Below, one piece after another: positions 7,945-53,466 of a stretch of DNA of 64,000 bases. The notes beneath the pieces were generated by a model. The model saw only the letters and a program-made list of their open reading frames with translations. It ran no database searches and was not told the DNA's origin. The stretch is taken from positions 19,572-83,571 of the forward strand of contig CAYZVC010000004.1 in assembly GCA_964482035.1 (NCBI GenBank), read 5' to 3'. Numbering within the stretch: position 1 is the first letter of the stretch; each line of letters opens with the position of its first letter. The stretch comes from an uncultured Candidatus Peribacteria bacterium (GTDB lineage: Bacteria; Patescibacteriota; Gracilibacteria; BD1-5; UBA2023). Made by a program: the position numbers and the translations under genes.

Positions 7945-8350
7945 ATGAAACGTCCGAAAAGCATCCGCCGACTCTCGGGATTCACGCTCGCCGAACTCAT
8001 CGTCGTGATAACGATCCTTGCCATACTCGCCACCATCGGATTCCTCGCCCTTTCCGGGTACTCGGAAGACGCGAAGGAAGCTTCGGTAAAGACCAACGTC
8101 CGATCCGTATATACCGCGATCAATTCGGAAAGCGCGATTACGGGGAATTCCCCTCGGTACTACGTCGTGCACGATACCGGAGCGGCGCTCTCGGGAGCCT
8201 TCATCACCATAGACGGAAATCCGGTGGCGCTTACCGGAGGCGACTGGAACGTTTCGGGAACGAATTATTCCGCCGGAAAACCCGACTTCGTAAAATTGAA
8301 AATGAATCCCGCCAAATTCCGAATATCCGGAGCGGGGACGGAAGGGTTTC
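7945..8350 (+). repeat. pilin N-terminal module, paralogous copy 1 (copy 2 at 28869-29285)
   Basis: By-eye DNA and protein alignment with 28869-29285: GFTLAELIVV.TILAILATIGFLALSGY, KTNVRSVYTAI, SPRYYVVHD, LTGGDWN..GTNYSAG.PD.VKLK.NP.KFRI are shared. Confidence 0.7.
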
Positions 8351-9255
8351 CATTCCTCTCCGTCGCGCATGCCGCGAATTACCAGGAAATGATCGCCGGA
8401 GCGGCCGACGTAATCCGCGGCGGAACTTCAGGAAGGCCCCGTCCATTGGGATTCCTTCAGGTGGCGGGCGTTTCTCCGATAACGAAAATCGCGAGCGTCG
8501 CCGGAAACCTTCCGTCCGATCAGGCGGGAAATCCCATGGGGCTCATCAAAGATCCCAGCGATTCCGCGACGGCGACCGGATTCGTCGTCGACGGGAAAAC
8601 CATCGGCAACGTTACGAAAACCGTTTTTTCGAAAAGCTGTCTGGAAATCAAGAACGCCGGAGCGTGAAGCGCCGACGGAACGTACTCCATCGATCCCGAC
8701 GGCGAAGGATGAAACGCACCCATCCAAGCATATTGCGACATGACTACCGACGGCGGAGGATGGACGCTCACTTTCTACGCACCCTCGATGCCTTCGGACG
8801 GAAGCGCGGACCTTACGGCGAACCAAGTCGTCATCAAGGGATTGCCATTAAAGACCTATACGTCCGATTCGGCAACGTACCCCGTGCTTACCAACGGTAC
8901 GGTAAATTCCTATTCAGAAGTGCTCTTCAAATGAGGCAATTCAAGCTGGGTGGGCCAAAAAGGCGCATGGAGCCGATTCGCGACCTTTCCTTCGGGAACC
9001 ACTGCCATGAGCGTAACGTTCGACGGGGTGCTCAATGCCGACGGAAGTACGGCCCTTTACCATCATTCGAGGGGATGGACGACCGGAACCGTCAACCCCG
9101 CGACCGCGACGTTTTGAATCTGGGACGATGCCGGACAGAGCAACATCTGCTGAGGAAACGGTGTGCCGGGATGAAAGAACTGCCCGTATTTCGTACACAC
9201 CACGTACTCGTACCACTACGAAGTCGCTTCCCAAAGATGGCTCTTCGTTCGATAG
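7945..9255 (+). CDS. type IV pilin-like protein with a C-terminal fibrinogen-related (FReD-like) domain
   Basis: Prepilin signal RRLSG/FTLAELIVVITILAILA with Glu at +5; frame runs through 6 TGAs to TAG 9253-9255; SCLEIKNAGAGSADGTYSIDPDG...QAYCDMTTDGGGWTL matches the fibrinogen C-domain signature. Confidence 0.8.
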
Positions 9256-11839: not shown

Positions 11840-13552
11840 TTATCCGCGGAGGCCGAAGCGGCGGCGGGTAATGAAGAACCCGATACCGAGCGCGAGGGAG
11901 AGAAGCGCGAGAACCTGGGCCGGTCCGGTCTGGACCTTGGTGGCTTCGGCGTAGTCGGCGGATTCGGTAGTAGCGTCGGAACAGACGGCCTTGACGGCGA
12001 AGTCTTCGTACTTGACGGCGTCCTTGGCGAGGTGGACGGTGTAGGAGGTGACCTTCACGTTTTCCACGAGGACGTAAGCACCGGTGGAATCCTTCTTATA
12101 GACGTTGTAGCTGAGGGCTTCCGGGATGGCATCCCAGGAGAGGACGCTCTGGTCGTCGGACTTGGCGACCTTGAGGCCGGAGACGTTGGCGATGGAACAG
12201 GTTCCGGCGGAGTTGAGAGCGATGTCTGCGGTGAAGACGTCGGATTCGGTAGCGGTGATCGGGGATCCGGCTACGTCGAGTGCGGCGATCTTGAAGAAGT
12301 ACTTGCCCGGTTCGAGACCGTCGACGTACCACTTATAGGTGGAGCCGGAAGCGGAAGCGCCGGTGCCGGTGAAGGCGATTCTGGACTTTTCGAAGGTGAT
12401 GGATTCCTTGGTGAGGGCGCCGGAGTCGGTGCCGTAGGAGAACTTGAACTTGGAGACGGATTCTACCGGGTTCACGACGTCGAAGGTGAAGGTGACGCGC
12501 TTGTCGCCGGATTCGATCTTCACGTTTTCGTACGCCATCTTCGGAGCTTCGAGGACGGTAATGGTTTCCGCGGCGGTCTTGACGGTCTTCTTTCCGAGGT
12601 CGGACGTGAGGGTCACGTCGATCGGGTAGGAACCGGAAGCGGTAGGAGCGGTGAGGGTGCCTACGTAGACGCCTTCGGAGGTTCCGCCGACGGTTACGTT
12701 ACCGGCGGTGACGCCGGAGGTCTGTTCTTTGAAGACTTCCACGCTGTCGCCGAGGGAAACGGAAACTTCCTTGAGCTTCGGTTCTGCGGTGACGGTGACG
12801 TTGAGGACGGCTCCGGACTTGACGGTCTTGCCTTCCTTCACGGTGATCGACTTGAACGCCGGGCCCTTGTCGGCAGCGGCCTTGAAGGAGATCTTTCCGG
12901 AGGTTCCGGCTTCCTTGTCGGAACCGTCGAGGACCTTGATTTCGAGAACGTTGTTTTCTTCGGTGATGCCCTTGAGCTTGTAGAGGATGGCGCCCTGGTC
13001 GTCGGACTGGCCTTCGCCGGTCTTGGTGCCGTTGAGGTAGACCTGGAACTTGGAGTTCTTCTTGGTGGTACCCACGACGTCGGTTTCGGCGCCCGAGATG
13101 GTGCTGCCGGATTCCGGTGCGGTGACGGTGACGGCTTCCTTGCCGGAAACGCCCGGTCCTACGTCGCCTTCGGTGACGTTGACCTTTGCGGTGCCTTCGA
13201 CCTTGTCGTCGTCGATGTCGATGACGGAGACGGTCATGTTACCAACCTTGGAGAATGCGAGACCCTTCGAGAAGGTCTTGGCGCCCTGGTCTGCGGCAAC
13301 GAAGGTGTAGCCTTCGGCGTACGGGAGGGTGGCCTTGGAGTCGTTGTCGACGGTGACGTAGACGGTGCCGGCGTAGTCGGCGACGTTGCCTCCGTCCTTA
13401 TCGAGGGCCTTGACGGTGAGGTCGAGAGCCTCGCCGACCTTGGCGGACTGGTTTACGGTAAGCGAGAACTTCGCAACCTTTCCTGCAGCGAACACGGCCG
13501 GGTGAGGAAGGAGGAAGGCGAGGGAGAGGAGGGCGGCAAAAAGACGTTTCAT
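11840..13552 (-). CDS. secreted cell-surface protein with Ig-like/FN3-like repeats and a C-terminal anchor signal
   Basis: Signal peptide MKRLFAALLSLAFLLPHPAVFA; beta-rich T/V/G/K repeats; FN3-like LSWDAIPEALSYNVYKK; C-terminus QTGPAQVLALLSLALGIGFFITRRRFGLRG (helix plus Arg cluster); no TGA. Confidence 0.8.
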   Translation of the reverse strand: MKRLFAALLSLAFLLPHPAVFAAGKVAKFSLTVNQSAKVGEALDLTVKALDKDGGNVADYAGTVYVTVDNDSKATLPYAEGYTFVAADQGAKTFSKGLAFSKVGNMTVSVIDIDDDKVEGTAKVNVTEGDVGPGVSGKEAVTVTAPESGSTISGAETDVVGTTKKNSKFQVYLNGTKTGEGQSDDQGAILYKLKGITEENNVLEIKVLDGSDKEAGTSGKISFKAAADKGPAFKSITVKEGKTVKSGAVLNVTVTAEPKLKEVSVSLGDSVEVFKEQTSGVTAGNVTVGGTSEGVYVGTLTAPTASGSYPIDVTLTSDLGKKTVKTAAETITVLEAPKMAYENVKIESGDKRVTFTFDVVNPVESVSKFKFSYGTDSGALTKESITFEKSRIAFTGTGASASGSTYKWYVDGLEPGKYFFKIAALDVAGSPITATESDVFTADIALNSAGTCSIANVSGLKVAKSDDQSVLSWDAIPEALSYNVYKKDSTGAYVLVENVKVTSYTVHLAKDAVKYEDFAVKAVCSDATTESADYAEATKVQTGPAQVLALLSLALGIGFFITRRRFGLRG

Positions 13553-13669: not shown

Positions 13670-14779
13670 TTAATCCGACTCAAACCCTGCCGAATAGGCA
13701 AAGGAAAATCGCCCCATCGAGAATCTATTTACGACCTCATCGGAGACATTTTGTCAAGCAATGATGAAATCTTTGTCGGCAACGCGTTTCAACACAAGAT
13801 CGGAGCGGTGCGGGTCGAGTTCGGAGAAAAGGTCGTCGAACAAGAGCACGAGCGGCTTACCGCCCTTTTCGATGAGAAAATCCGCGGCGATGAGCTTGAG
13901 GGCGTAGAGCAGGGATTTGTTCTCCCCTCTCGACAGGTAGTCTTCCGACCGGATCTCGCCGGAAGGCAGTACGACCGTAAGTCCGAAGTCGTCCAAGTGC
14001 GGGCCGACGTAGGTATGGCCGAGCACCACGTCGCGGTCGCGGTTTTTGGCGAGGTAGGCGGAAATGCTGCCTTCGACATCGGCTTCGTCGGTTTTGGTCT
14101 GGTAAACGAAGCGGACTTCGTATTTGCCGTCGAGGAGCGAGGAGATGTCGGAAGAGCGCGAGCGCACGTATTCGACGAAGCGCATCCTATAGCGGAAATA
14201 TTCGGCGGCTTTGGCGGTGAAAAGCGGATCCCATACGGAAAGATCGCCGGCCTTGGCCTCCCCTTCAGAAATCTTCTTGAGCAGGGCGTTGCGGTTCTTG
14301 AGGGCGGCGGAATAGTCTTTTTTCACTTTGGCGAACTCCGGAAACGCGAGGGAAACCGGCTCGTCTAAAAAGTCGCGGCGGAGCGAAGGGCCGAGATAGA
14401 GCACGTTCATCTCTATGGGCGAAAAGAGCATCGCCCGGACGGGAAGCTTGGAAAGGTAGTTCGCGCGCGAGACGTTTTCGCCCTGGATGGCGAACGAGAC
14501 GGCCTTCTTCTCGGTATCGCAGGAAATGCGGAACTCGTATTCGAGACCGGCGGGGTTTTCGAGCTTGGCGCGTACGAAAAACGCGCCCTCGAAACCGGCG
14601 GCGAGCTCGGTGGCGCGCTTGCCGGGCGGGAGGGCGCCGTTCAAAGCGAAATAGGCGGCTTCGAGAAAATTGGTTTTTCACGAACCGTTGGGACCGCAAA
14701 CGGCGGTCCGCCCGTGGAGGGGAACCGCCGTTTCGGAGTGGTTTTTAAACCGGTAGCAGGCGATCTCTTTGACCCGCAT
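13670..14779 (-). CDS. recF: DNA replication and repair protein RecF
   Basis: MRVKEIACYRFKNH...VCGPNGS-G-KTNFLEA with the Walker A Gly encoded by TGA 14678-14680; second TGA at 13754-13756, then 27 more codons to TAA 13670-13672; ATG overlaps the gatC stop (TAATG). Confidence 0.85.
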
Positions 14780-16583: not shown

Positions 16584-18926
16584 ATGGACAAAAGAAATCT
16601 CTCGGAATCCGACATTTGCTCAAAATTCATCACGCCGGCCCTTCATGAAGCCTCTTGGCAAGAATCCCAGATTCGCCGGGAGGTTTCTTTTACGAAAGGG
16701 CGGATTAAAGTGAAATGAAAAACCGTTTCTCGCGGGGAGACAAAGCGCGCGGATTACATCCTGCACCATGCGAACCATCTCCCGATAGCCATCGTAGAAG
16801 CCAAAGACAACTGCCATTCCATCGGGGACGGTATGCAACAGGCTCTCGGTTATGCAGAAACGCTCGACATTCCGTTCGTGTATTCATCAAACGGCGACGG
16901 CTTCCTTGAGCACGATAGGACGAAAAAAACCTGAACGGTCGAACGGGAACTTCGCATGGACGAATTCCCCACTCCCGACGAGCTGTACCGCCGTTACCGG
17001 GTCGCCAAGGGGTTCGATGAAGAAATCGAAAAAACGGTAATGGAGCCGTATTACGAGGACGTTAGCGGAAAGGGTCCGCGCTATTATCAGCAAATCGCCA
17101 TCAACAGAACAATCGAAGCAGTCGCGAAAGAACAGGATCGTATCCTCCTCGTCATGGCGACCGGTACTGGAAAAACGTACACCGCTTTCCAAATCATCTG
17201 GCGTCTCTAGAAAGCGCGCAAGAAAAAACGAATCCTCTTCCTTGCGGACAGGAACATCCTCGTCGACCAGACGATTACGAACGATTTTAAACCGTTCGGC
17301 GATAAAATGGCTAAGATCGAGAACCGCAAAGTAGATACTTCGTACGAAATCTACCTCGCCCTCTACCAAGGCCTCACCGGCGGTGAAGAGGACAAGAACG
17401 TCTTCAAACAGTTCTCGCCGGGCTTTTTCGACCTCATCGTCATCGACGAGTGCCACAGGGGCAGCGCGAGGGAAAACAGCGAATGGCGGGCCATTCTCGA
17501 CTATTTCAAAGGCGCTACACAAATCGGTCTTACCGCGACCCCGAAAGAGACTGAAGACGTATCGACGCATACGTATTTTGGAGACCCTATTTATACATAT
17601 TCGCTCAAACAGGGCATAGAAGACGGTTTTCTTGCACCGTACAAAGTGGTTCGCGTCTGAATGGATGTGGACGAAGGCTGGAGACCTTACAAAGGGCAGC
17701 TCGATTATTACGGCGCCGAGATTCCGGACAAAGTATACGAGCTTGGGGATTTCGACCGGAACATCGTCATCCGGGAGCGTACCGAAGCCGTTGCCAAGAA
17801 AATCAGCGAGTATCTCAAAGCGACAGACCGATATTCAAAAACCATCGTCTTTTGCGTGGATATCGACCATGCCGAACGTATGCGCCAAGCCCTCGTGAAC
17901 GAAAACGCGGACGAGGTCGCGAAGAATCCGAAATACGTAATGCGCATCACGGGCGATAACGAAGAAGGCAAAATGGAGCTCGACAATTTCATCGATCCGA
18001 AAGAACGATACCCCGTCATCGCCACGACCTCGAAACTCCTCACCACCTGAGTGGACGCGCAGACGTGCCGGGTTATCGCCCTCGATGCCATCATCAACTC
18101 GATGACGGAATTCAAGCAGATCATCGGTCGCGGAACCCGCATCAACGAAACCTACGGCAAATACTACTTCACCATCCTCGACTTCCGTAAGGCGACGAAC
18201 AAGTTCGCGGATCCAGATTTCGACGGCGAACCCGTCGTAATCTACAAACCCAAACCCGACGAACCGGTCGACGGCGGCGATGTCTGAACCGTTTGAGACG
18301 AAGACGATGGAAACGGCGGATGAACCGTAATCATCGGGGACGGTACGGGAGGATGAGCCGGTGGAGGACAGAAGAAGATCATGGTCCGCTGAGTGCCCGT
18401 GAGTGTTTCCCAGGAACGGGTCCAATACATCGGACCGGACGGCAAACTCATTACCGAGAGTCTCAAGGACTACTCGAAAAAGAACATCCTCTCGGCATAT
18501 GCGAGCCTAGACGATTTCCTGAACGAATGGAACCACGTCGAACAGAAGCTCGCCGTAGTATCCGCATTGGAAGAAAAGGGCGTATTCTTCGAGGACATGC
18601 AAAAGGAAGTCGGACAAGATTACGATCCGTTCGACATGGTGTGCCACCTGGCGTACGACCGTCCGCCGCTCACTCGCAAACAACGGGCGGACAAAGCGAA
18701 AAAATCCGACTATTTCTCCAAATACGGGGAACAGGCGAAAGAAGTGTTGAACATGCTTCTCGAAACATATGCGGACCGTTGAATCGGTGCGATAGAAGAC
18801 ATGGGCATTCTCACCGTCAGTCCGCTCTCGCGCCTTGGAAAACCCGTAGAAATCGTCACGCTTTTCGGAGGAAAGGCCCAATACAAGGCAGCACTTAGAG
18901 AGCTCGAAGCCGCTATTTACCAATAA
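16584..18926 (+). CDS. hsdR: type I restriction enzyme R subunit (HsdR), carrying one in-frame TAG (possible pseudogene)
   Basis: Pieces 16473-16718, 16956-17210, 17307-17660, 17661-18050, 18051-18287 and 18393-18782 are all in one frame; PD-(D/E)x[29 protein letters not shown] (TGA), EcoEI-R-like C-terminus; about 10 TGA=Gly; TAG at 17208-17210 in [20 protein letters not shown]. Confidence 0.85.
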
Positions 18927-18943
18927 GAAATCCTAAAGGAACC

Positions 18944-20371
18944 ATGTCTAATATTTCCGCGATCGTAAAATCCATTCAAGACACTATGCGCAAGGATGCC
19001 GGGGTCGACGGCGACGCCCAGCGCATCGGCCAAGTATCTTGGATGCTCTTTTTGAAAATTCTCGACGATCAAGATCGTAACCTCGAAGTCATTCTCGACG
19101 ACTACGTTTCCCCCGTGCCCGAGGATTGCCGTTGGGGCAATTGGGCAGCCAACAAAGAAGGGATGACGGGTGACGAGCTCGTGGAATTCGTTAACGAAAC
19201 CCTCTTCAAGAAACTCCGCAGCCTCCCTTATGACGCGAATCGTCCGATGACCGGGATTATCCGCGGCGTTTTTGAGGACTCGTTCAATTATATGAAATCG
19301 GGAACGCTCCTTAGGCAGGTAATCAATAAGATCGGCGAAATCGACTTCAGCAAGAAAACCGAACTCCACGTCTTCAACGACATCTACGAAAAAATCCTGA
19401 GCGATCTCCAATCCGCGGGGAACGCCGGGGAATACTACACCCCCCGTTCGGTTACTCAGTTTTTAGTAGACATGGCGGATCCGAAACTCGGCGAGACCGT
19501 TCTTGACCCTTCCTGCGGCACGGGCGGCTTTCTTACTTGCGCCATCGAGCATATCCGCAAGAACGGCGTACATGAACGCAAGGACGAAGAAACTCTTCAA
19601 AAATCCATCCGCGGAATAGAACTCAAACAGCTTCCGCACCTTCTCGCAACGACCAATCTCATTCTCCACGGTATCGAATGCCCCTCGGGACTCCGTCACG
19701 ACGACACACTTTCGCGTCCGCTCAAAGACTACGGCCCCGAAGATGCGGTAGACGTAATCGTCACGAATCCGCCCTTTGGCGGACAGGTAAAACCCGGCAT
19801 CATTCACAACTTTCCAAGTCAGTTCCAGACTGCGGAAACGTCGTTTTTATTCATGGTGCTCATCATCAATCTGCTTAAATCCGGAGGACGTGCCGGTGTG
19901 GTATTGCCGGATGGCTTCCTCTTCGGCGAAGGCGTGGCCACCCGCATCAAGGAAAAACTCCTTTCCGACTGCAACCTCCATACCGTCGTCCGCTTGCCGA
20001 ACGGGGTATTCAACCCGTATACCGGCATCACGACCAACCTCCTCTTCTTCACGAAAGGCGAACCGACGAAGGAAGTCTGGTATTTCGACCACCCGCTTCC
20101 GGCGGGTATCAAGAATTACAGCCGATCGAACCCGCTCCGTATCGAGGAATTCGATTTGGAAAAATCCTGGTGGAACGACCGGAAGGAAACCGGAAACGCC
20201 TGGAAGGTCGGCATCGACGAAATCAAGGCGAGAGATTACAATCTCGACATTAAGAACCCGAATCGGAAGGAAGAGAAAGAAATCTTGGATACGAAAGAAC
20301 TCATCGACGCTATCGAGGCGAATTTCAAGGAAGCGGCGGCAATTTTGGAGAAAATTAAGACGAGCGTGTAA
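18944..20371 (+). CDS. hsdM: type I R-M N6-adenine DNA methyltransferase subunit M
   Basis: Intact 475-aa ORF; GEYYTPR, DPSCGTGGFL, NPPFGG motifs; no TGA. Confidence 0.95.
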   Translation: MSNISAIVKSIQDTMRKDAGVDGDAQRIGQVSWMLFLKILDDQDRNLEVILDDYVSPVPEDCRWGNWAANKEGMTGDELVEFVNETLFKKLRSLPYDANRPMTGIIRGVFEDSFNYMKSGTLLRQVINKIGEIDFSKKTELHVFNDIYEKILSDLQSAGNAGEYYTPRSVTQFLVDMADPKLGETVLDPSCGTGGFLTCAIEHIRKNGVHERKDEETLQKSIRGIELKQLPHLLATTNLILHGIECPSGLRHDDTLSRPLKDYGPEDAVDVIVTNPPFGGQVKPGIIHNFPSQFQTAETSFLFMVLIINLLKSGGRAGVVLPDGFLFGEGVATRIKEKLLSDCNLHTVVRLPNGVFNPYTGITTNLLFFTKGEPTKEVWYFDHPLPAGIKNYSRSNPLRIEEFDLEKSWWNDRKETGNAWKVGIDEIKARDYNLDIKNPNRKEEKEILDTKELIDAIEANFKEAAAILEKIKTSV

Positions 20372-20372
20372 T

Positions 20373-21695
20373 ATGGAAATGCAAACGGTAAAGATAGGCG
20401 ATCTGCTCAAAAGGCGAAAAACGCCAGTACCCATTCTTGACGATAGCCTTTACAGGCGCGTGACCATTCGGATGAATAAACAAGGGGCTGTAAAGAGGGA
20501 TGAGGTTCTTGGAAAGGACATCTGAACAAAACAACAATTCCTCGTCAAGGAAGGCGACTTCCTGATATCCAAAATCGATGCGAGAAATGGGGCTTTCTGA
20601 CTGGCCTCAAAAGATCTCGACGGCTCAATTATTACGTGAAGCTTTCTCGCATTTGAGATTAATACGGGGATCGTCGACCGGGAATATTTCATTTCTTTTG
20701 TCAATTCCTGAGAGTTTCAGGACATATGCAGAAGAAACAGTTCGGGCACGACGAACAGAAAAAATGTCGATGAGACGAAATTTTTAGATGCCGAAATCAC
20801 GGTTCCCGTTTCGATCGAAGATCAGAAAAGGATCGCGAACAAAGTGGGCCACTTGAACGGAATGATGGTTGCCGCAAGGAGCGAGCTGGAGGCTGCGGGC
20901 GAATGAATCAAAAACCTCCGCTCCTCCATCCTCCAAGACGCCATCCAAGGAAAACTCGTGCCGCAAAACCCTTCCGACGAACCGGCCAGCGTACTTTTGG
21001 AGCGGATACGGAAAGAGAAGGAAACGCTCGCGAAAACCGGAAAGATCAAGAAGCAAAAGAACCTCCCGCCGATTTCGCCGGAAGAGGTGCCTTTCGAGTT
21101 ACCGAAGGGGTGGGCATGGGTGAGGCTATGAGAAATACTCACCTACGTTCAACGTTGACCATCCGCTATTTACGCAGAACTGAGTGAAGTTGAGATAATT
21201 AATCAAAAATGCATCCAATGGAGTGGATTGGATTTACACGTAACGAAATACTACAAGACGGATCTAATATCAAAGTTGGATGAATGTCGTTTTATTAGAA
21301 GTAACGACATACTTTTAAACTCAACCGGAACATGAACTATTTGAAGGTGCCTTTTGGTGAATCAAATAAAAGAAAGAACATATATTGCCGACAGTCACGT
21401 AACCATACTAAGATCGTACATTTCAAACAGTTACATCAATCTATTCCTACGAACCCCGAGGATCCAAGGTCTCATAAACGGGGTTGGCTGATCCACGAAT
21501 CAAATAGAATTGAGCAAGGCCATGATTGAATCCCTCCCGATCCCCGTACCACCCATGTCGGAACAGATTCGTATTATCGCAAAAGTTAGTGAACTAATAT
21601 CCGATTGCGACAAGTTGGGAAAAACAGCCGAACGATCATTAAAAAACAGCGAAAAATTACTGGAAAGCAGTTTGGTCAAAGTCTTTAAAAACTAA
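20373..21695 (+). CDS. hsdS: type I R-M specificity subunit S
   Basis: Starts 1 nt after the hsdM stop; 10 in-frame TGAs fall on G in SSGTTNRK-type, VRL-G-EI, NSTGT-G-TI-G-R and G-STNQIELS contexts; two TRDs plus the conserved central and C-terminal helices. Confidence 0.9.
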
Positions 21696-21701
21696 TGCCA
21701 T

Positions 21702-23690
21702 GTGCCCGTGTCAACCAATTTCGTTCTTTGAACTTCCGACGAATTCATAAAGCGCAAGTACTGCAAGGATATTGGGAAAGCCATATCTGAACTGGTTTGG
21801 AATTCGCTAGATGCCAATGCGACTAAGGTAAAGATCTCTTTTGGAAAGGGGTGATTGTTTTGAGAGGGCGAATATTCAGTAATTCGAGACGTCATCATCG
21901 AGGACAACGGTGATGGGATTGACCTGATTGACGTCAATGGTGCATTCACGCACTTATGAAAATCATCGAAAGTTAAATGAATGAAGAATAGGAGCGGTCG
22001 TTTCGTGCACTGAAAGAACGGCGAATGACGGGCCTATACGATAGGACTTTGAGGAAAAACGACCTGGGAAAGCCGGTATTTAGATAAGATTCAGGATAAA
22101 GCCTTCTCGTTTTCGATCTCAAATTCCAGCTCATTAAGAAATTTTTCCGTATCGGATCAAATCGAAACCTCGAACAAAGAGACCTGAGTTACGGTGAAAG
22201 TTACCGAAATAAACGATGAGATCGCGAAACAAATCGACCTTAGAAAACTGAAACAGGTGCTTCTGCTTGAATTCGCACATTATCTCAAGACTTATGAGAA
22301 GGATGGCATCGAAATCGAGGTAGATGGCGAAATTCTCAATATCTCTGACGCACTGGCTTCCTCACCAAAAGAAGTCGATTTTTCCGCAAGAAATCCAACT
22401 GACAATAACTCATATCAGTTCAAGCTCGCCATATACCATTGGAAAGATAAATGAGTCCATGCCCGTTATTTCGTAAATTCGGATTTTTCAATCATACACG
22501 AAGACGGCAATACCTGAGTCACTAGAAAGGACTTCTGACATTCCATCTACATTTCCGGAGCCGTGATCGAGGAAAAGGCGAACGTTTTTCAACTTTTCAC
22601 CTCCGAACCTTTCTTCGCCCATATCAGCGATGCTGCGAAGGAAAAAATAGAAGGGTATTATCGCGAGTATTTCAAAAAGGAGATCGCCCCGACGATAGAA
22701 GCCTTCAAAAAGGCTGGAGTGTACCCTTATAAGGACACGCCTGATACGCCGGTGGAGAAGGACGAACGCATGGTCTTCGACGCATGCTTATTTGCGATAT
22801 CCTCCAATTCCGAAAAATTCCACAAGGATAGCGCCGAGTCTAAAAAAATAATGCTCAACCTACTGAAGGAGGCCATAGAGAAGGATGCCACTTCTATCAT
22901 TCCAATCTTCCAGAGCGTCCTGAATCTTCCACAAGACGAGATAAATGATTTGATCGAGCTCATAGATGAATACTCTTTATCCTACGTTATCAAACTGTCG
23001 AGAATCATTACCGACAAGCTCTCTTTGATCGAGGAATTGGGTCTTCTTATTCAAGATCCCGAATTTAAAGGCAAAACCCTTGAAAGGAAACATCTCCATA
23101 GGATACTCGAACGAGAGCTGTGGATTTTCTGAGATGGGTATACCGAATGAACGAGCGACAGAACGATGAAGGACGTACTGAAGACGCATATAAGGTTACT
23201 CGGAAGAGAAGACCTGATCGACGAAGCAGCACTATCCTCCGTTTCCAACGATAGGCCAGATCTTTTTATTTACAGGCAGTACCCGCAAACAAGGGAAAGC
23301 CACTTTGAACACCTTGTGGTCGAACTTAAAAGACCGTCGTTGAAACTTACGACAAATGAGCTTTCACAAATCGAAGACTATGCCGATCAGGTGTCTGAAG
23401 ATGCAAGGTTCGACAAGGAATCAGTCAAGTGGAAATTCATCCTAATCGGAGATGACATGGATTCCCAAGTCAGACGGAGAATCAATCAAAAAGGTTTTCC
23501 CGAAGGATGTTCAATGTTACAGGATAACTATGAAGTCTGGGTATATAGTTGGGCGAAACTCTTGCAAAATCTTCGCTGGAAATACCAATTCCTCAAACAG
23601 AAACTGGATAGCGAATCTTCGCAGAATCCGAGGGATTTCAAATACTTGAAGAGAACGTTTCCCGAGATTGTGGATGCGGTAAATCCTTAA
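21702..23690 (+). CDS. GHKL-type ATPase fused to a Shedu/DUF4263-like PD-(D/E)xK nuclease domain (candidate defence protein)
   Basis: One frame (GTG 21702 to TAA 23688-23690) with about 14 TGA=Gly; Bergerat motifs AISELVWNSLDANA and EDNGDGID, then G-KSSKVK-G...GRFVH-G-KNGE-G-R; C-terminus LHRILERELWIF-G-DGY...RPDLFIYR...HLVVELKRP...QIEDYADQV. Confidence 0.7.
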
Positions 23691-23712
23691 TTCATCAATA
23701 ACCGCTTATCAA

Positions 23713-24036
23713 ATGGCAACAAAAAAGGAAATGGTGGACAAGGCACTATCCCATGTAAAGAATTTCGAATCGATCAAAGGACTTGTAACCATCGTGGAAC
23801 TGAAGGATGGAAAAACTGTAGTCAACCAGCGCGCCATGTATCGATGATCGAAATACACTAAAAGGGATTGGTGTTTCAGAACAGTCAGTGCAGTTATCAG
23901 AAATAATCCGTTCGACGAGACTCGTCCGAGCGTTTTCCAGATGAATCTGGACATTTCTAATATCAAAAGTCTAAGGGTGATTGCTAGCGATCAAGAGATT
24001 CGAGGCAATTCAACCGGCATCTCTGAGCGTAAGTAA
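23713..24036 (+). CDS. small hypothetical protein (107 aa)
   Basis: ATG 23713 to TAA 24034-24036 with one in-frame TGA (23845-23847); missed by the ORF track because it is split; competes with antisense ORF 23709-23966. Confidence 0.4.
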
Positions 24037-24054
24037 GACATATGCGACAACTCA

Positions 24055-24088
24055 AAAACCCCCTTTTCTTTTCGAGAAGGGGGTTTCA
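24055..24088. terminator. bidirectional intrinsic terminator
   Basis: AACCCCCTT / AAGGGGGTT stem flanked by an A-run and a T-run, between convergent genes. Confidence 0.65.
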
Positions 24089-24107
24089 GTAATGAGGGCT
24101 CGCTATT

Positions 24108-24641
24108 TTACACCGGAATGCTCATGGAACCATTACCAGATTCCCGAACAAATCTAACCATTTCTGTTTTAGTCTCGTTAAACTCGATATACAGGCCAAA
24201 TTTATACCCGAGTTGAACGGTGTACTCCGTTATCTTTCGTTTATCAAAATCCCGATAGGTCTCGCCTGATTTACGAGTGGCATCAGCATATTTTTTCTTC
24301 TTAACCTCTATAATAAGCAAATTTTTTTGATTCCCAGTCCTGTCATGCACTATTATGTCTGGAAATACTGTCGTTCACTTTTCATCGGTAGAATCGGTAT
24401 CTTCGACATCCAAATTAAGGCGCTTGGCCATAAAATGGCCATCTTCATCAACCTGGTACATTTTGTTGTATTCGCAATCGATGTCATACCCAGGGAAAAG
24501 ATCGACTATAAATTCCGCTAATTTATGGGTAATCGACCTTTCGTTCACATCCTGGCATAACAAAAATTTCTCTTTCACGGTAAATTGCCGAACACGGTCT
24601 TCTACGTCTTCCCAAGTAAATTCCACATCTTGTGATGTCAT
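24108..24641 (-). CDS. PD-(D/E)xK nuclease-fold protein (177 aa)
   Basis: Pieces 24108-24350 and 24375-24641 are in frame and joined by TGA; ERSITHKLAEF...VFPDIIVHDRTGNQKNLLIIEVKKK (D...ExK pattern). Confidence 0.6.
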
Positions 24642-24714
24642 GCGTTGATGTTCAATAGAGATAGAGCGAACACAATCCAGCTAACGATTAATCAATCCAG
24701 GATACTGGCAGCCA

Positions 24715-25591
24715 CTATTTTGGATTGATTATAACTTTGACGGCCTTTCACGGTTTTGATTGCCCCTCCAAATCTTGGATAAGTCACTTTTTATTCCGAA
24801 CGTAATCCCCTTTGTCGTAAATAAAGACCAAAAGGGTGCGATAACTCGGGTGCTGGTTGTACCTGACTATGTCAATGGCGATTTGTTCACCCAACTCTTT
24901 ATCTTTCAATTTCTCAGAAGCCATTTTCGTCTCAATGATGATCCCCTCTTCGGGCAAGACCATATCTATTCTCGAATTTCATCATGCGCTACTTGGCGAA
25001 TAGTCCTCCGCTCTCACATCTCAATAAAACATTTTCAATACAGATCTCAGTAAATCCTGAACATCATATTCGTCACTTATGGACAAGGTCTCCCTATTTG
25101 CATGCCTATATCTCAGCTCTTGAGCGCATTTGTGAAATCATTCGCATAAACTAGCAATATGCGCAAGGGCGTCCTTTTCCTCATTCTCGTAAACTTCTTC
25201 GTTAATAGGGATAAGATCGGCCTTGTTTAGCAAGATTTCCAATATGTATCTTCTTCTTTATGTCGTCCTTAAGGTCTTTGATCTTCTCGGATAGGTAGAT
25301 TTCGCGGTATCATCATACAAACACCATTCAAATCGATTCGTATTCCTCAAGATACGGATTCTCTTGATAGCTGTAACTCACCTTAAGAAATTCCCTGTTC
25401 CAATGGTCCCATTTTGAGTATTTTTGTTTCAATTCTTCAAGCTCCTCCTCTCGACGAATCTCTTCGTCGTATAAATCACGTCAGGAGTTGATTCGATCTT
25501 TGATAGTCTGCTTGAATTTCTCCTTTGGGATTATAAGTCTTGCGGGTCAATACATCTCAGAAACCGTCGGTGCCGTCCTCACTTTAGCCAT
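24715..25591 (-). pseudogene. coiled-coil plus PD-(D/E)xK nuclease gene split over two overlapping frames (frameshifted, or two genes)
   Basis: Frame A 25591-25202 (MAKVRT...KKKIHIGNLAKQGRSYPY*) overlaps frame B 25242-24715 (LEILLNKADLIP...DEYDVQDLLRSVL...SRIDMVLPEEGIIIETK...LLVFIYD); skipping one base near 25243 would give ...KKKIHIEILLNKADL... Confidence 0.45.
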
Positions 25592-25874
25592 ATGATTTCG
25601 CTTTAGTCATGTAATTAGGACCAATGTGATTCATTTTTACCGGTCGCATTTAGGTAAACACACTTTACCTAAAAAATCTGAAATAACACACGGTACTGAA
25701 TCAGCGCTATAAAGCCTTCTTGGAATTCTCCACGAAAGTTCGAAGATTACGACCCTTTAAGACCTCCAAGAACAATCAAAATCCCCCTGTCCGCAAGGAT
25801 GGGGGGATTTTCGTGCCAAAGCGCCATAATCGAGTAAAATCCATAGTAGGAATACGATTCCCTCTCTTCCGAAC

Positions 25875-26447
25875 ATGCCATTTTCCAAAGCATTCCCCGA
25901 TACATGGAACGAAGCTGTTGCCGAATTGTCTGCCTCGATGCGTTTCTCCGATTTTCCCTACAATCGAAATATTTCGTTTTTCAAAGCTTTCGTAAATGGA
26001 CGGGAATTTGAAATCCCTCAAAGGATCACGTTCGATCAGTTGGACGATACGCCCTTGGATAAGGAAAGCGCTACGATTTACGCTTGCATGCTCTCTCGAC
26101 ACGTCGACGGACACCTGAGGGGAGAATGAGCGAAACTCCTTGCTCTCCACGAAGAGGACTGGATCATGCCATACGTTTTGCGCTTAATCGGAGAATACGT
26201 ACCGGGAATATCGGCCGTACTTCTCCAAGGCATTGGAAGATTCAATCCGAAAGAATTGAACTCCTTCCTGAAAGCCAACCCCGAGCTCTACGAACTCGTC
26301 CAAAGGCAGGCAATAAGCTATCACAACGAATACTACCGAGAAATTCCACTGACGGAATATCCGCCATTTTTAGCATTGAAACGCATTTCCGAGGTTGGAA
26401 AAATACCGCTTTCCCGAAAAGTTTTCTCAGTAAACAACATCAATTAA
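25875..26447 (+). CDS. hypothetical protein (190 aa)
   Basis: Pieces 25875-26129 and 26166-26447 are in frame and joined by TGA 26127-26129; TAA stop. Confidence 0.55.
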
Positions 26448-26466
26448 GACCCCCCTCATTTCCCAT

Positions 26467-26496
26467 TTGACTTAAAGCACTTTAAGTTATTAGACT
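26467..26496 (+). promoter_or_regulatory. MerR-type promoter/operator (TTGACT, dyad, TAGACT)
   Basis: TTGACT 26467-26472 and TAGACT 26491-26496 with an 18-nt spacer containing the dyad ACTTAAAG-CA-CTTTAAGT (26470-26487), just upstream of the merR-family gene. Confidence 0.5.
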
Positions 26497-26522
26497 GTGC
26501 GCAGGTATTTCCGAAACCTCCC

Positions 26523-26963
26523 ATGCGCCGATATTCCATCAAAGAAACCGCCGAGCTCAGCGGACTCCCCGAAAGCACCCTCCGCTACTACGAAACCATG
26601 GGTCTCATCGGCCCCATAGAGCGCGACGGGAGCAGCAAGCACCGCACGTACGGCGAAGACGACGTGAACCTCATCGTGGGGATCGCGTGTTTGAGCGCGA
26701 CCGGGATGTCGATCGCGGACATGCGGAAATACCTGGACAACTTCCGATCCGGAAAGGACGCCGCCAAAGAACAGAAGTCGCTTTTGGAAACGCAGAAGAA
26801 ACTCCTTGCGAAAGAAGCCGAATCCGTCGTGCTCCGGCAAAAATACGTAGACGTGAAAATCGCCTACTGGAGCGCCGTGGAAGCCGGAGACGAAGCCGCG
26901 AAGAACGCCGCGTCCGAAAAGGCGTGGCAACTGGCGGCGAAGCTGAAGAATTCGAAAAAATAA
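26523..26963 (+). CDS. MerR-family transcriptional regulator (AdhR/NmlR-like)
   Basis: [32 protein letters not shown]; conserved Cys in [12 protein letters not shown]; coiled-coil C-terminus. Confidence 0.9.
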
Positions 26964-26974
26964 TCCCCCACCCC

Positions 26975-28012
26975 ATGATTCAGACAAAATCCCGCGCCGT
27001 TTTCGGCGCTACCGAAGCCTTCGTACCCTACGCGCTCGAACGCCGCGAAGTCGGAGAAAAAGACGTGCTCATCGAAATCAAATACGCCGGCATCTGCCAC
27101 AGCGACATCCATAACGCCCGCGGCGAATGGGGGCGTTCTAAGTACCCGATGGTTCCCGGCCACGAAATCGCCGGAATCGTTACGGCCGTAGGTTCTGAAG
27201 TCACGAAACACTCCGTGGGCGACCGCGTGGGCGTTGGCTGCATGGTGGATTCGTGCCGCGAATGCGGCCACTGCCACGACGGCGAAGAACAGTTCTGCAA
27301 GGCCTGCGTATACACCTACGGGGGCGTCGGAAAAGACGGAACCCCCACCCAAGGCGGATATTCGAGCCATATCGTAGTGACGGAGGATTTCGTAGTGCGC
27401 ATCCCCGATTCTATTCCGCTCGACAAAGCCGCTCCGCTCCTTTGCGCGGGCATTACCACGTACTCCCCGCTAAACCGCTGGAACGCCGGCGTCGGAAGGA
27501 AAGTGGCCGTCGTGGGCATGGGCGGACTCGGGCACATGGCCGTAAAGATCGCGAGCGCCATGGGCGCCGAAGTCACCGTCCTCTCGCAGTCGCTCAGCAA
27601 AAAGGAAGACGGCATTCGCTTCGGGGCGAAAGACTACCGCTCCACGAAAGACCCGTCGACCTTCGCCGAACTGAAGGGAAAATTCGACCTCATCCTCAAT
27701 ACCGTCAGCGCCAAAATCGACGTGGACGCCTACCTTTCGCTTCTCGCGGTGGACGGCTCGCTCGTCAACGTGGGAGCTCCGGCGGAAGCCCTCTCCGTCA
27801 ATGTTTTCTCGCTCATCATGCAGCGCAAATCGTTCTCGGGGTCGCTTATCGGCGGAATCCGCGAAACGCAGAAAATGCTCGATTTCTGCGCGGAACACGG
27901 CATCGCTCCGGAAATCGAAACCATCTCTGCCGACCAAATCGACGCCGCCTACGAACGGATGCTGAAATCCGACGTGAAATACCGCTTCGTCATCGATACG
28001 GCGACGTTGTAG
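26975..28012 (+). CDS. Zn-dependent NAD(P) alcohol dehydrogenase (YahK/AdhA cinnamyl-ADH type)
   Basis: [40 protein letters not shown] motifs; 345 aa, no TGA; TAG stop. Confidence 0.9.
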
Positions 28013-28042
28013 GGATTATTCAAGAATCCCTACCGCTCCATA

Positions 28043-28624
28043 TTACCGCAAGAAAAACGCTTCCCGGGAGTCGCCGGTAAGGGCGTCCACGTAGTCGTAT
28101 TTGCGCGCGCGGTCTCAGAACTTCGACAGCACCGCCTTTGACCGCAAGTTGTCTTCGTTGCAACAAGCCGAAAGCCCGGACAATCCCCAAACTCTCTGAA
28201 CGTGCCTCAGCCATTGCGCGATCAGCGCCGTTCAGAGCCCCTGGTCGCAGTAGGCGTCGAAAAGCTCGATGCCGAGATTTCAAAGTCGGCGCTCGTCCGA
28301 CCTGTTGCGGAACTGGCGGTGGGTCAACGTCCCGATCCACTCGCCTTCGCGGGTCACACAATATTCGTCGCTCTCCCGTATGCCGTATTCCTCGGTGACC
28401 TTCCTTCGCAATTCTTCCTGCGCGGTTTCGGAACAGAGATATCAAACGTAGTACTCCACGTTTTCTTTGACGAGATCGACGGTTACGCCGGCTTTTTTCC
28501 AATTCGAAAATATGTCGTTCACGGCCAGGGATCCGGCAATCCTTTCTGCATTCTCGGGCGCGAATCGAATGAGGGAGAAGTCTCCGCTGAGACGCATACG
28601 GCTTTCGTTCATCCTGTTTGCCAA
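28043..28624 (-). CDS. GNAT-family N-acetyltransferase
   Basis: Frame continues through 4 TGAs below ORF 28442-28624; motif A GIELFDAYCDQGL-G-TALIAQWL with the G encoded by TGA; TAA 28043-28045. Confidence 0.75.
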
Positions 28625-28868
28625 AGTGGGTATTGAACTTACTTATAATAATCGAGACACGTTTGTCAAAACGTGCGCGCCATTGGACTGTCGAGCGAAC
28701 TCGTGTACTATGGACGCGATATCCGTAAATATCCCCCGCATGGGGCTCGCGCTCCAGAATCAGCCGAAGGAGCCATCGAACTTTCCACTCCGGTCGGAAA
28801 TCGAATTTGCCAAGAGCGTATCGGGAAAAGTCCAACGGATCGTCGGATAACGTAACCTTTTTCGGAAC

Positions 28869-29285
28869 ATGCCGCCCGCAAAAACCCCCCATACGAAGCC
28901 CGCGGTTAAGAAAACCCTGAGTTTCCGCGGCTTCACCCTCGCCGAACTCATCGTCGTCGTCACCATCCTCGCCATTTTGGCGACGATAGGTTTTTTGGCG
29001 CTCTCCGGCTATACGCAGGACGCCAAGGACGCCGGCGTGAAAACCAACGTCCGTTCGGTCTATACCGCAATCACCGCGGAAAGCGCGGTATCCGGAAATT
29101 CGCCCCGGTACTACGTCGTCCACGATCCGGACGCGGCCCTTTCGGGCGGAATCGTCTTCGTCAGCGGAAACCCGAACGTCCTTACCGGAGGCGACTGGAA
29201 TACGCCCGGAACGAACTATTCGGCGGGCAATCCCGATTACGTGAAGCTGAAGCTGAATCCTGAAAAATTCCGCATCGCTTCGGCG
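28869..29285 (+). repeat. pilin N-terminal module, paralogous copy 2
   Basis: See 7945-8350; similarity stops where the C-terminal domains begin. Confidence 0.7.
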
Positions 29286-30203
29286 TTCTGATTCTTCGAC
29301 TCGGCACAAGCGTTCGATACCAAACAGCCGGTCATTGGCGCGGCGGACATGACGGAAGGATCCTCGGGCGCAAGGTTGACCCGTTCGGTCGGCTACGTTC
29401 AAGTCGTCTGAGCGCAGCCTTCCGGTTCGTACGTGGTCGTGGGGAATTACCCGACGACGGTTTCGGGTTCGGTCTCGGGACTCGTGAAAGATCCTTCGTC
29501 AAATAGCCTTACGGGCGCGGTGGTCGAGGGCGGTACTGCCGGCTCCTCTTCGACGAGCGGCCCGGTGACGGTAACGGTTTCGTCGAATTCGTACGACTAC
29601 GACATGTTCGTTGCCGCAGGATCCCCCTCCGGACCGGTTTCCGTTACGGTAACGCTCGCTCCGGGGACGGTGCTCTGAGCTTCAACGACCTCGAAGTACG
29701 CCTTCGATACGGGAACGGGATGGGCTGCGGGCTCGACGCTCAAGCTCGTCGTCTGAACCGGCGCGTACGTCAGCGGACGCGGCGGAAACGGCGGCGGTGC
29801 CGGGCGTTCGTACGCCGGAGACGCTGGAGGTCCTGCGTTCCGTGCGCAATACCCCATCTCGGTCACGAATTTTTGAACCATCCAATGAGGCGGAGGAGGA
29901 GGCTGATCGAGGCCGGACCTCTCTTGGTGAGGCGGCGGCGGTTGAGCCGGCGCGGACGGATGAGTGGGATGAGTGGGCGGAGGATACGACGACGGCCAAT
30001 GACCCAACGGCCGCGTAGGAACGCTTACGGCATGAGGAATCTGAGGATTCTACTACGGAGGAGGCGGGGGAGGACCCGGTGCGGCAGGAGCGGCATCGGC
30101 CACCATCGGACCCCAGCCCGGCTGAGCCGGCGGAGCGGCGGTAACCGGAAATGCGAAAGTCACTTGGACGGCAGCGGGAACGAGATTGGGGGCGGTGAAT
30201 TAA
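28869..30203 (+). CDS. type IV pilin-like protein, paralogue of 7945-9255, with a different Gly-rich C-terminal domain
   Basis: SFRG/FTLAELIVVVTILAILA prepilin motif; pieces 28869-29291, 29433-29678 and onward share one frame to TAA 30201-30203; 15 in-frame TGAs by my count, 13 of them in the GGGGG-type tail. Confidence 0.8.
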
Positions 30204-30276
30204 TCCGCGGTTCCGCGATTATGCGAACCGGGATTTTTCGCTATACTTTCCCTATCGTTTTTAAAATCGAACCACC

Positions 30277-30849
30277 ATGGACCAGAAAAAATCCGTCATT
30301 GCCGCGAAGGCCGCGCTAGCCCTCGCGTTTCTCGCCATCCCCGCGAAATCGTTCGCGTTCGTTCCGCTCGTATGCGACCTCTGTACCGTAGGCGTCGTGG
30401 CCGGATTGGCCGTTTCCCGCTATCTCGGCGTGGACGACTCGGTCGTCGGCGTTTGGATCGGCGCGGTCGTAGTGGCGCTCATCGCCATGACCAACGCGTA
30501 CCTCGAAAACAAGAACGTCCGCTTCAAGTTCCGCGATACCTTGATCGCCCTCTCCTACGTGGGATTCACCGGCGCGTCGCTGTATGTCGCGGGCGTCATC
30601 GGATTGCCGCGTAACGTGTTTTTCAAAATCTCCCAGAATTTTGCGGAATTCGTTCCGTCGATCGTGGCCGACAAGATCTTGCTCAGTTCCGTAGCGGGCG
30701 CGATCGTGCTCGTCGCCGCTTCGAAGTTCTACCAGTTCCTCAAAGCGAAGAACGGCGGAAAGGCCCACTTCCCTTTCGAAAAGGTGTTCATCCCGCTCGC
30801 AAGCCTCGCCGCCACCAGCGCCGTCTTCTACTTCGTCACCCTCAAATAG
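30277..30849 (+). CDS. hypothetical multi-pass membrane protein
   Basis: Intact 190-aa ORF with a signal-like N-terminus and 4-5 hydrophobic helices; TAG stop. Confidence 0.65.
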   Translation: MDQKKSVIAAKAALALAFLAIPAKSFAFVPLVCDLCTVGVVAGLAVSRYLGVDDSVVGVWIGAVVVALIAMTNAYLENKNVRFKFRDTLIALSYVGFTGASLYVAGVIGLPRNVFFKISQNFAEFVPSIVADKILLSSVAGAIVLVAASKFYQFLKAKNGGKAHFPFEKVFIPLASLAATSAVFYFVTLK

Positions 30850-52776: not shown

Positions 52777-53466
52777 CTAAGTTCCGCACTTCCCTACGAA
52801 CGCCCGGAAAATCGGCGCGTGAGATTCGAGACACTCCGGATGCCATTGAACCCCGTACACGGGAAGTTCGCGGTGTTGGATGGCTTCGACCGCGCCGTCT
52901 TCGGCGCTTTTGGCTATGATTTCCAACTCATCGCCCAATACGTCGATCGCCTGGTGGTGGATGGAATTGACCGGAATCCGGGATTCGTCGAAAGCTACCG
53001 AAAGGAATCCTCCGTCCCCGCAAATCACCACTTCGTGAATCTTTTCGTGCCGTTCGTCCGGGCGGAAATGGAACTCGCTATTGGAAAGGTTCTGGATGAG
53101 CGAACCCCCGAAATACACGTTGATGAGCTGCATGCCCTTGCAAATTCAGAGCACGGGCTTTTCGGCGGCGATGACGGCTTTCATGAACCGGAAAAGGAAC
53201 CCGTCATGTTTGGGAACGAACTCCACCGCTCCGCAAAGCTCGGCTCCGTAGAGCGCGGGGTAGATATCGGCCCCGCCGGGAAATACGAAACCGTCGAGAT
53301 CCTCGACGTACGTCGAAACCGCTTCGGCATTGCAGGGCACGATATAGGCGACTCATCCGGCCTTTTCGATGGCGGTAACGTACCGGAACGTTACGCGATT
53401 GGTTTCCCCATGGGTTTCCTGCCGGTAATCCGATAGGATTCCGACGCGCACTCTCTTTCTTTCCAT
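52777..53466 (-). CDS. class I glutamine amidotransferase / gamma-glutamyl-GABA hydrolase (PuuD, peptidase C26) family
   Basis: Pieces 52777-53133 and 53146-53340, plus upstream, are in frame; catalytic G-ICKGMQLINV with the G encoded by TGA 53146-53148; HHQAI and VQWHPE motifs. Confidence 0.85.

Follow-up and report, generated by a model that had tools for sequence, protein, structure and literature searches.

In the 64,000-nucleotide (nt) stretch of DNA analysed here (hereafter the window, its first letter being position 1; contig CAYZVC010000004.1 of assembly GCA_964482035.1, positions 19,572 to 83,571 of the forward strand, from an uncultured Candidatus Peribacteria bacterium), the forward-strand gene at 28869-30203, here gene B, encodes a modular type IV pilin-like protein of 444 amino acids (aa) in which a pilin domain, the handle, is followed by a C-terminal domain, the tip, of the kind known from phage Gp38 adhesins. 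Its product starts with a basic class III (prepilin) leader that ends in Gly (MPPAKTPHTKPAVKKTLSFRG; aa 1-21, 28869-28931) and has a predicted cut G21|F22. The N-terminal half of the pilin domain comprises alpha-1 and the first beta strands (aa 22-137, 28932-29279) and is followed by its C-terminal half (aa 138-236, 29280-29576). The tip consists of a beta-strand (beta-helix) part (aa 237-302, 29577-29774) and a Gly-rich part (aa 303-444, 29775-30200), the latter a predicted polyglycine-II sandwich of seven Gly-rich runs with closing C-terminal strands. A paralogue, gene A (7945-9255, forward strand; 436 aa, 6 TGA codons read as Gly), has its handle at aa 1-225 (7945-8619) and an unrelated tip at 8620-9252.

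How is gene B decoded? From the ATG at 28869 to the TAA at 30201-30203 there is a single frame whose internal stops, 15 in number, are exclusively TGA, and it is intact only under genetic code 25. The whole window uses that code, with TGA read as glycine, and the standard code cuts many of its genes into pieces. In a RecF-like gene the Walker A motif reads GPNGSxKT, an HsdR-like gene has TTxVD and an amidotransferase gene has PVLxICKGMQ, where x is in each case a TGA for Gly; examples of code 25 across the window are at 13670-14779 (reverse strand), 17307-18926 (forward) and 52777-53466 (reverse). Within gene B, 11 of the 15 TGA codons are in the Gly-rich part of the tip, and all 13 of those in the tip as a whole align with Gly columns conserved in homologues. 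TGA accounts for 13 of the 65 Gly codons of the tip, compared with 8% in other genes of the window, and this enrichment suggests that the tip has long been resident in a lineage with code 25. With standard decoding the open reading frame would end at 29291 after 140 aa, as the first in-frame TGA is codon 141.

That last point probably explains where a sequence-only reading of this DNA, made before the present analysis, had placed the boundary between the two modules, i.e., after 140 codons or so. It had proposed that the N-terminal part of gene B is paralogous to 7945-8350 at both the DNA and the protein level, and the paralogy of genes A and B is borne out at both (blastp E 2e-82; blastn 74% identity over 348 nt, E 3e-59). 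The similarity is graded along the protein, being 20% in the leader (aa 1-20 of gene B) and 78% over aa 21-137, which is far more than a generic 25-aa pilin helix. It is still 39% between aa 138-236 of gene B and aa 129-225 of gene A, where E is 2e-15 with the segment taken alone, and so the contention that the genes share nothing after a KFRI motif has to be given up. This second handle segment is conserved in the family, being kept in most of the handle-bearing database homologues (30-51% identity), and is present in short stand-alone pilins too. The true junction of handle and tip in gene B is accordingly, on these alignments, near aa 232-236 (window ~29565-29577). Beyond it the C-terminal ~210 aa of the two proteins have no significant local similarity and differ in their Pfam matches, GP38 for gene B and Fibrinogen_C for gene A, so that homology does not extend over the full length and the idea of an unrelated C-terminal payload survives, with its start some 95 residues further on. 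In the tip of gene A (8620-9252) the Fibrinogen_C profile covers the first ~50 residues only.

Is the handle a whole pilin, or just a pilin-like start? The leader MPPAKTPHTKPAVKKTLSFRG continues into FTLAELIVVV and the Pfam N_methyl match reaches 24.0 bits against a cut-off of 21.2. As read from the sequence, Glu is at +5 of the predicted mature protein (F22-T-L-A-E26), and a long hydrophobic/amphipathic helix lies downstream of the leader. A PDB sequence search with full-length gene B as query gave matches of alpha-1 to pilins only (geopilin, PilE1 and PilA), and none to gp38; it took Pfam, PHROGs and a comparison of folds to establish the relation to gp38. For the fold, an AlphaFold 2 (AF2) model of aa 1-240 of gene A, a segment free of TGA, stood proxy for the handle of gene B; its mean predicted local distance difference test (pLDDT) value is 82.5, and it shows one helix over residues 15-66, then strands over 74-113 and over 150-187, the latter with pLDDT above 90. 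Most informative are the short stand-alone pilins (199-235 aa) of related metagenome-assembled genomes (MAGs), which are homologous to the whole handle (36-38% identity over ~200 aa, E 1e-24 to 2e-34) and nearly identical to it at the N-terminus of alpha-1. At two loci, L079 (52-6591) and L080 (34-7527), such short pilins adjoin genes for a PilB-type T2SSE ATPase, a SpoIIE phosphatase, a PilC-type T2SSF platform protein and a PilT-type T2SSE ATPase, and these sets are likely to be the major pilin together with pilus machinery. As the handle is homologous from end to end to short pilins beside pilus genes, its ~220 aa appear to be a complete type IV pilin domain, paralogous to the presumptive major pilin. 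A complete pilin domain would also account for the two levels of conservation, with the helix and core kept and the exposed C-terminal half more variable.

What the pilin carries in gene B is a Gp38-type binding domain. Residues 237-442 match Pfam PF05268 (E 8.5e-10; 39.3 bits, the cut-off being 25) over profile positions 7-216 of 218, i.e., the GP38 match starts where the handle ends, and the tip matches phrog_2056, a tail fibre / host specificity family, with E 7e-12. The seven Gly-rich runs (303-313, 340-347, 354-362, 364-373, 389-394, 397-405 and 418-423) align with Gly columns that are invariant or nearly so in 36 homologues. Identity is 53-61% to phage proteins of ~271-275 aa and 61-65%, depending on the alignment, to the database protein P0015; both alignments are ungapped in the Gly-rich motifs, and the non-Gly segments align too. 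It is an AF2 model of P0015, as proxy for the tip, that provides the evidence of fold. Its pLDDT is above 90 over the domain, and a confidently modelled stretch of ~90 residues has neither helix nor strand by DSSP, as expected for polyglycine-II helices. Among PDB entries the model had significant matches only to the receptor-binding domain of PP01 gp38 (9v85, E 1e-11, template modelling (TM) score 0.77) and to S16 gp38 (6f45_D, E 2e-9), with the next match at E above 3, and in a viral structure library it matched tail-fibre and Gp38 proteins. Membership of the tip in the Gp38 family is thus shown by sequence and, as far as the modelled proxy goes, by fold, and the earlier guess of a tail-fibre-like fold for the Gly-rich tail was close to right. 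Yet gene B is not a Gp38 tail-fibre protein. The N-terminal segment of 60-85 aa present in the phage homologues is absent, with pilin in its place, and gene B has neither the attachment domain that docks to gp37 nor a phage genome context.

The handle is not peculiar to the window. A scan of one genome per species found relatives of it in five MAGs only. Two 'Patescibacteria group' MAGs account for 32 and 27 loci, a third of that designation and a Gracilibacteria MAG have 8 apiece, and a Peribacteria MAG has 3. Re-translation of the loci with code 25 gave 64 complete family members, genes A and B counted, whose handles end at aa 205-304 (mostly 215-260) and whose tips are of 122-1,106 aa and fall into 31 strict sequence clusters. 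The resulting catalogue of C-terminal domains, of the type that the sequence-only reading had envisaged, has among its representative tips nine named Pfam families (GP38, Fibrinogen_C, Fib_succ_major, Laminin_G_3, FGE-sulfatase, Gly_rich_2, TSP1, SPRY and RCC1) and several tips without a match; across the family more than ten unrelated tip folds are on the same handle. Handles that are 82% identical over 300 aa bear FGE-sulfatase and Laminin_G tips (L029 and L036), those 85% identical over 236 aa bear Gly_rich_2 and fibrinogen-like tips (L016_2649 and L034), and those 71% identical over 221 aa bear gp38-like and fibrinogen-like tips (L021_5983 and L021_4420). Tip classes are scattered over the handle tree. 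Similar handles with unrelated tips, together with that scatter, support the view that tips have been exchanged at the junction in the course of evolution, as judged from these sequence comparisons. The proposal of a conserved handle with swappable tips as a cassette system is to that extent upheld in its evolutionary sense; as programmed variation it is not supported, both copies in the window being full genes and no silent partial cassettes having been found there.

Some features of the family merit mention in their own right. Six loci (L005, L010, L011, L016, L019 and L021) have two or three members each, every one with a different tip. Gly_rich_2 is a second Gly-rich type of tip on the same handle (L010_4848, L018_5920 and L016_2649), and L035_4994 clusters loosely with these tips, an assignment made by clustering and not by a Pfam scan; two database proteins, P0100 and P0102, have Gly_rich_2 and GP38 in one chain. 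The short sub-domain that Fibrinogen_C matches in the gene A tip, 'YCDM.TDGGGWT', recurs in the family (loci L005-L059): at least 19 of its 64 tips have it, sometimes after a Cys-rich linker, and the sequences downstream of it are mutually unrelated between tips, so that the tips seem to be modular in their turn.

Where are the nearest relatives of the gene B tip? The closest are in phage contigs. That of P0034 also has Hydrolase_2, Peptidase_S74 and two further GP38 genes, and that of P0051 a capsid gene, an SU10-type adaptor and Peptidase_S74. P0015 is a protein with a signal peptide from a contig with 63% guanine plus cytosine (GC) that carries TonB and riboflavin genes. TGA is a stop codon in all three contigs. 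Out of 1.84 billion cluster representatives, a profile of the tip's branch picked up 8,748. A pilin N-terminus is absent from all of the best 150 gp38-like ones, and the phage-type start ISLSxIxxEFG is present in at least 76 of those 150. The combination of N_methyl with GP38 occurs also in P0018, which carries the present handle, and in P0064, where the pilin match extends over ~80 aa only. These two and the other pilin-borne gp38-like tips (L017_4118, L025_1036 and L021_5983) are at most 37% identical to the tip of gene B, which is itself 53-63% identical to proteins of phages and bacteria that use the standard code, and in the gp38 distance tree the pilin-borne tips are spread over several distinct positions. 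This is only suggestive of several independent fusions of pilin and gp38. In a collection of cultured phages the tip has a single match, to a hypothetical protein encoded by Sphaerotilus phage vB_SnaP-R1 (MN844877.1, 36630-36947; 42.5% identity over 101 aa, E 4e-4). This match hints weakly at relatives of the tip in phages of freshwater Betaproteobacteria and is too weak to be taken as a pointer to a host.

With N_methyl and a pilin domain (aa 1-236) followed by GP38 (aa 237-442), the product of gene B has the make-up of a modular pilin, and we consider it probable, with some reserve, that this pilin with its Gp38-type tip functions in pilus-borne attachment to another bacterium. Prepilin peptidase would cut the product after G21, and alpha-1, being almost identical to that of the presumptive major pilin, would let the subunit enter a type IV pilus, where, because of its bulky appendage of ~210 aa, it would probably be a minor pilin at the pilus tip. 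The loops between the Gly-rich motifs would bind a surface structure of another bacterium, e.g., a loop of an outer-membrane protein or a glycan, and pilus retraction would pull the small, probably host-dependent cell onto its partner. Leader cleavage, pilus assembly, tip location and binding to another cell are steps that we infer, and on the same reasoning the family would give a cell a repertoire of adhesins, not a switchable cassette.

Several considerations count against this proposal. Pilus machinery, prepilin peptidase and a major pilin were not found within the 64 kilobases (kb) of the window, and the link to pili comes from related MAGs and the literature. A Foldseek search of the PDB with the head of the handle model gave no significant match to a solved pilin (best E 0.67); pilin heads are very diverse. 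The fold of the tip is read from P0015 and that of the handle from gene A aa 1-240, both as proxies. To our knowledge, Gp38 receptors are known for enterobacterial phages only. The trees are neighbour-joining trees without support values, built on Gly-rich sequence, and simple scans for promoters and terminators around gene B found nothing.

How did a phage-type domain come to be on a pilin? A tentative answer is that host-dependent cells similar to Gracilibacteria repeatedly took receptor-binding domains from phages infecting the bacteria that are their hosts or prey, and placed them at the tips of pili. The scatter of the pilin-borne tips in the gp38 tree, the 53-63% identity of the gene B tip to standard-code proteins and its identity of at most 37% to other pilin-borne tips are what prompt the idea, and we hold it as possible though doubtful, the direction of transfer between phage and bacterium being something that we infer. 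Were it correct, the receptor code that sets the host range of a phage would also set the partner range of an epibiont, and the dozens of handle-tip paralogues of each genome would amount to a list of the partners it can recognise.

Could the pilin part serve instead as an anchor, in a short pseudopilus, a bindosome-like structure or the membrane, from which the tips bind nutrients, polymers or abiotic surfaces? Many of the tips are indeed lectin- or enzyme-like (Laminin_G_3, FGE-sulfatase and Fib_succ_major), such proteins of Gracilibacteria are annotated as type II secretion pseudopilins (GspG), and incorporation of the gene B product into a filament is a prediction only. However, pili proper are favoured by the completeness of the pilin domain, whose alpha-1 hardly differs from that of short pilins with genes beside those for PilB-type and PilT-type (retraction) ATPases, and by the reports in the literature of host attachment through type IV pili in related ultrasmall bacteria, and the gp38 fold is known solely as a binder of cell-surface receptors (PMC12032242). 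Surface display of this sort is in our judgement unlikely, though it has to be taken seriously.

The possibility of programmed variation, in which tips would be moved between handle copies within a lineage by gene conversion or site-specific recombination (cf. Neisseria pilE/pilS and shufflons), is raised by the conserved 5' and variable 3' regions of the family, by the handles 71-85% identical with unrelated tips in related MAGs and by the tandem arrays of members at some loci. The locus itself makes it improbable. Genes A and B are complete, 21 kb apart, each with its own start codon and signal peptide, and their handle DNA is just 74% identical with a longest exact match of 20 nt. Within the window no further copy of the handle and no partial, promoterless copy of a tip was found, and the search for repeats around gene B gave only short inverted and direct matches, probably due to chance; neither a recombinase nor a reverse transcriptase was found nearby. 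Membership in a system of the pilE/pilS type was considered on these same features of the window and rejected. A second strain is also relevant. Its locus L012 (JASDUA010000181.1) is orthologous to this region of the window (95.5% identity over 3.7 kb), and its version of gene B has the same 15 TGA codons and differs in 8 codons, 6 synonymously and 2 non-synonymously, even though the neighbouring gene of alcohol dehydrogenase type is only 77-90% identical between the strains.

Comparison of that locus with window positions 26400-30700 reveals a mosaic, as identity is 99-100% over 27830-30380, with gene B inside, and 77-90% over 26930-27800, in the alcohol dehydrogenase gene, and there is an indel of ~300 nt at 26630-26930. 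The mosaic similarity suggests recombination between strains.

That gene B is instead the tail-fibre adhesin gene of an integrated phage, with the pilin-like N-terminus incidental, we regard as highly improbable: the nearest homologues of the tip are admittedly phage tail-fibre proteins, but the flanks are of housekeeping type (a zinc-dependent alcohol dehydrogenase, a GNAT acetyltransferase and membrane proteins) with no phage genes present, the handle belongs to a chromosomal multigene family, the tip has an excess of TGA for Gly while TGA is a stop in its phage relatives, and none of the 150 best gp38-like representatives starts with a pilin. Least tenable, and effectively refuted, is the notion that 15 in-frame stops under the standard code mark a decayed pseudogene whose low-complexity Gly-rich tail gave a spurious Pfam match of the compositional type common for such sequence, since the stops are all TGA and those of the tip each coincide with a Gly column that is conserved, housekeeping genes of the window prove code 25, the ungapped alignment with homologues 53-65% identical to the tip includes non-Gly segments, and the second strain keeps the frame with no more than the codon differences given above.

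Elsewhere in the window, an island of low GC content at ~20000-26000 (41-45%, compared with 55-58% elsewhere) adjoins type I restriction-modification genes (neighbours at 17307-20371 and 21702-23690) and is probably an acquired defence island; beside it is a gene for a 662-aa HATPase_c_3 protein with 14 TGA codons. On the reverse strand at 11840-13552 a gene free of in-frame TGA and of Pfam matches encodes what may be another surface protein; its 570 aa include a signal peptide and, at the C-terminus, a membrane anchor.

Type IV pili are the main suspects for how the ultrasmall, host-dependent bacteria of the candidate phyla recognise their partners. A pilin with a phage-type receptor-binding domain is a concrete and testable recognition molecule, and through the phage relatives of its tip hosts may be predicted independently; PP01 gp38 (9v85) has already been expressed apart from its phage, fused to GFP. 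The family moreover illustrates how far the modular-pilin strategy can reach, with ~30 copies per genome in related MAGs and more than ten tip folds, several of them typical of eukaryotic adhesion proteins or of phage fibres. There is a caution for annotation, as the standard code cuts these genes at their first TGA and the tips are then lost or called separate proteins.

Of known systems, Neisseria pilE/pilS has in common with the present one a conserved 5' pilin region and variable 3' regions. There it is the pilin head itself that is varied, by gene conversion from promoterless silent copies, whereas here whole foreign domains follow a complete pilin and all copies are full genes, neither conversion machinery nor silent copies having been seen. 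Closer by lineage type and genetic code is a closed Gracilibacterium genome with 15 large GspG-like pseudopilins of mean length 528 aa, the C-termini of which were not analysed (Sieber et al. 2019, PMC6851277); Gracilibacteria carry PilB/C/D/T in addition to many large GspG-like proteins (PMC6851277). An abundance of oversized pilin-like proteins in a genome is common to both, a likeness by description only; a common handle amounting to a complete pilin, varied tip folds and a tip of phage type were not described there.

Gp38 adhesins are monomers built of an attachment domain, a beta-helix and a polyglycine-II sandwich, and their loops between motifs bind porins or lipopolysaccharide (PMC12032242). 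With the Gp38 adhesins of T2/T6-like phages, S16 and PP01 (PF05268; 6f45 and 9v85) gene B shares the Pfam match and the alternation of Gly-rich motifs with variable segments, and its proxy model shares the fold of beta-helix and polyglycine-II sandwich (TM 0.64-0.77); the tip is likewise a binding module of a single chain. It differs in having pilin instead of the N-terminal gp37-attachment domain, in being in a genome where TGA is Gly, in its place within a large branch of environmental sequences and outside the enterobacterial Straboviridae clade, and in its seven Gly-rich runs, the canonical Gp38 arrangement being five Gly-rich motifs (GRM) and four hypervariable segments (HVS).

The nearest precedents for the overall design are the modular pilins, in which a pilin module has an extra C-terminal domain not specific to pilus biology. 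Two entries are pertinent to their catalogue, IPR002181, which we take to be that for fibrinogen, and IPR007932, presumably that for Gp38. Dataset S1 of PMC8179133 has the architecture of N_methyl with IPR002181 eight times and of N_methyl with IPR007932 once, the latter without comment. That study has more than 1,200 modular pilins in 264 architectures, many from candidate-phyla bacteria (PMC8179133). Streptococcus sanguinis PilB, pilin plus vWA, is an experimentally proven adhesin (Raynaud et al. 2021, PMC8179133) and its PilC is pilin plus lectin; modular pilins of this type are predicted to be minor pilins located at the tip (PMC8179133). We found in the literature no description of pilin joined to gp38, nor of phage-type receptor-binding domains on pili in these bacteria. 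In contrast to the S. sanguinis proteins, the pilin module here is large, of ~210 aa, and in related MAGs a single genome can have dozens of its paralogues; grafted onto it is a receptor-binding domain of phage type, as far as we know not discussed or characterised on a pilin before. Modular pilins were already known; what is new is a phage-type receptor-binding tip on a handle that has been multiplied to dozens of loci.

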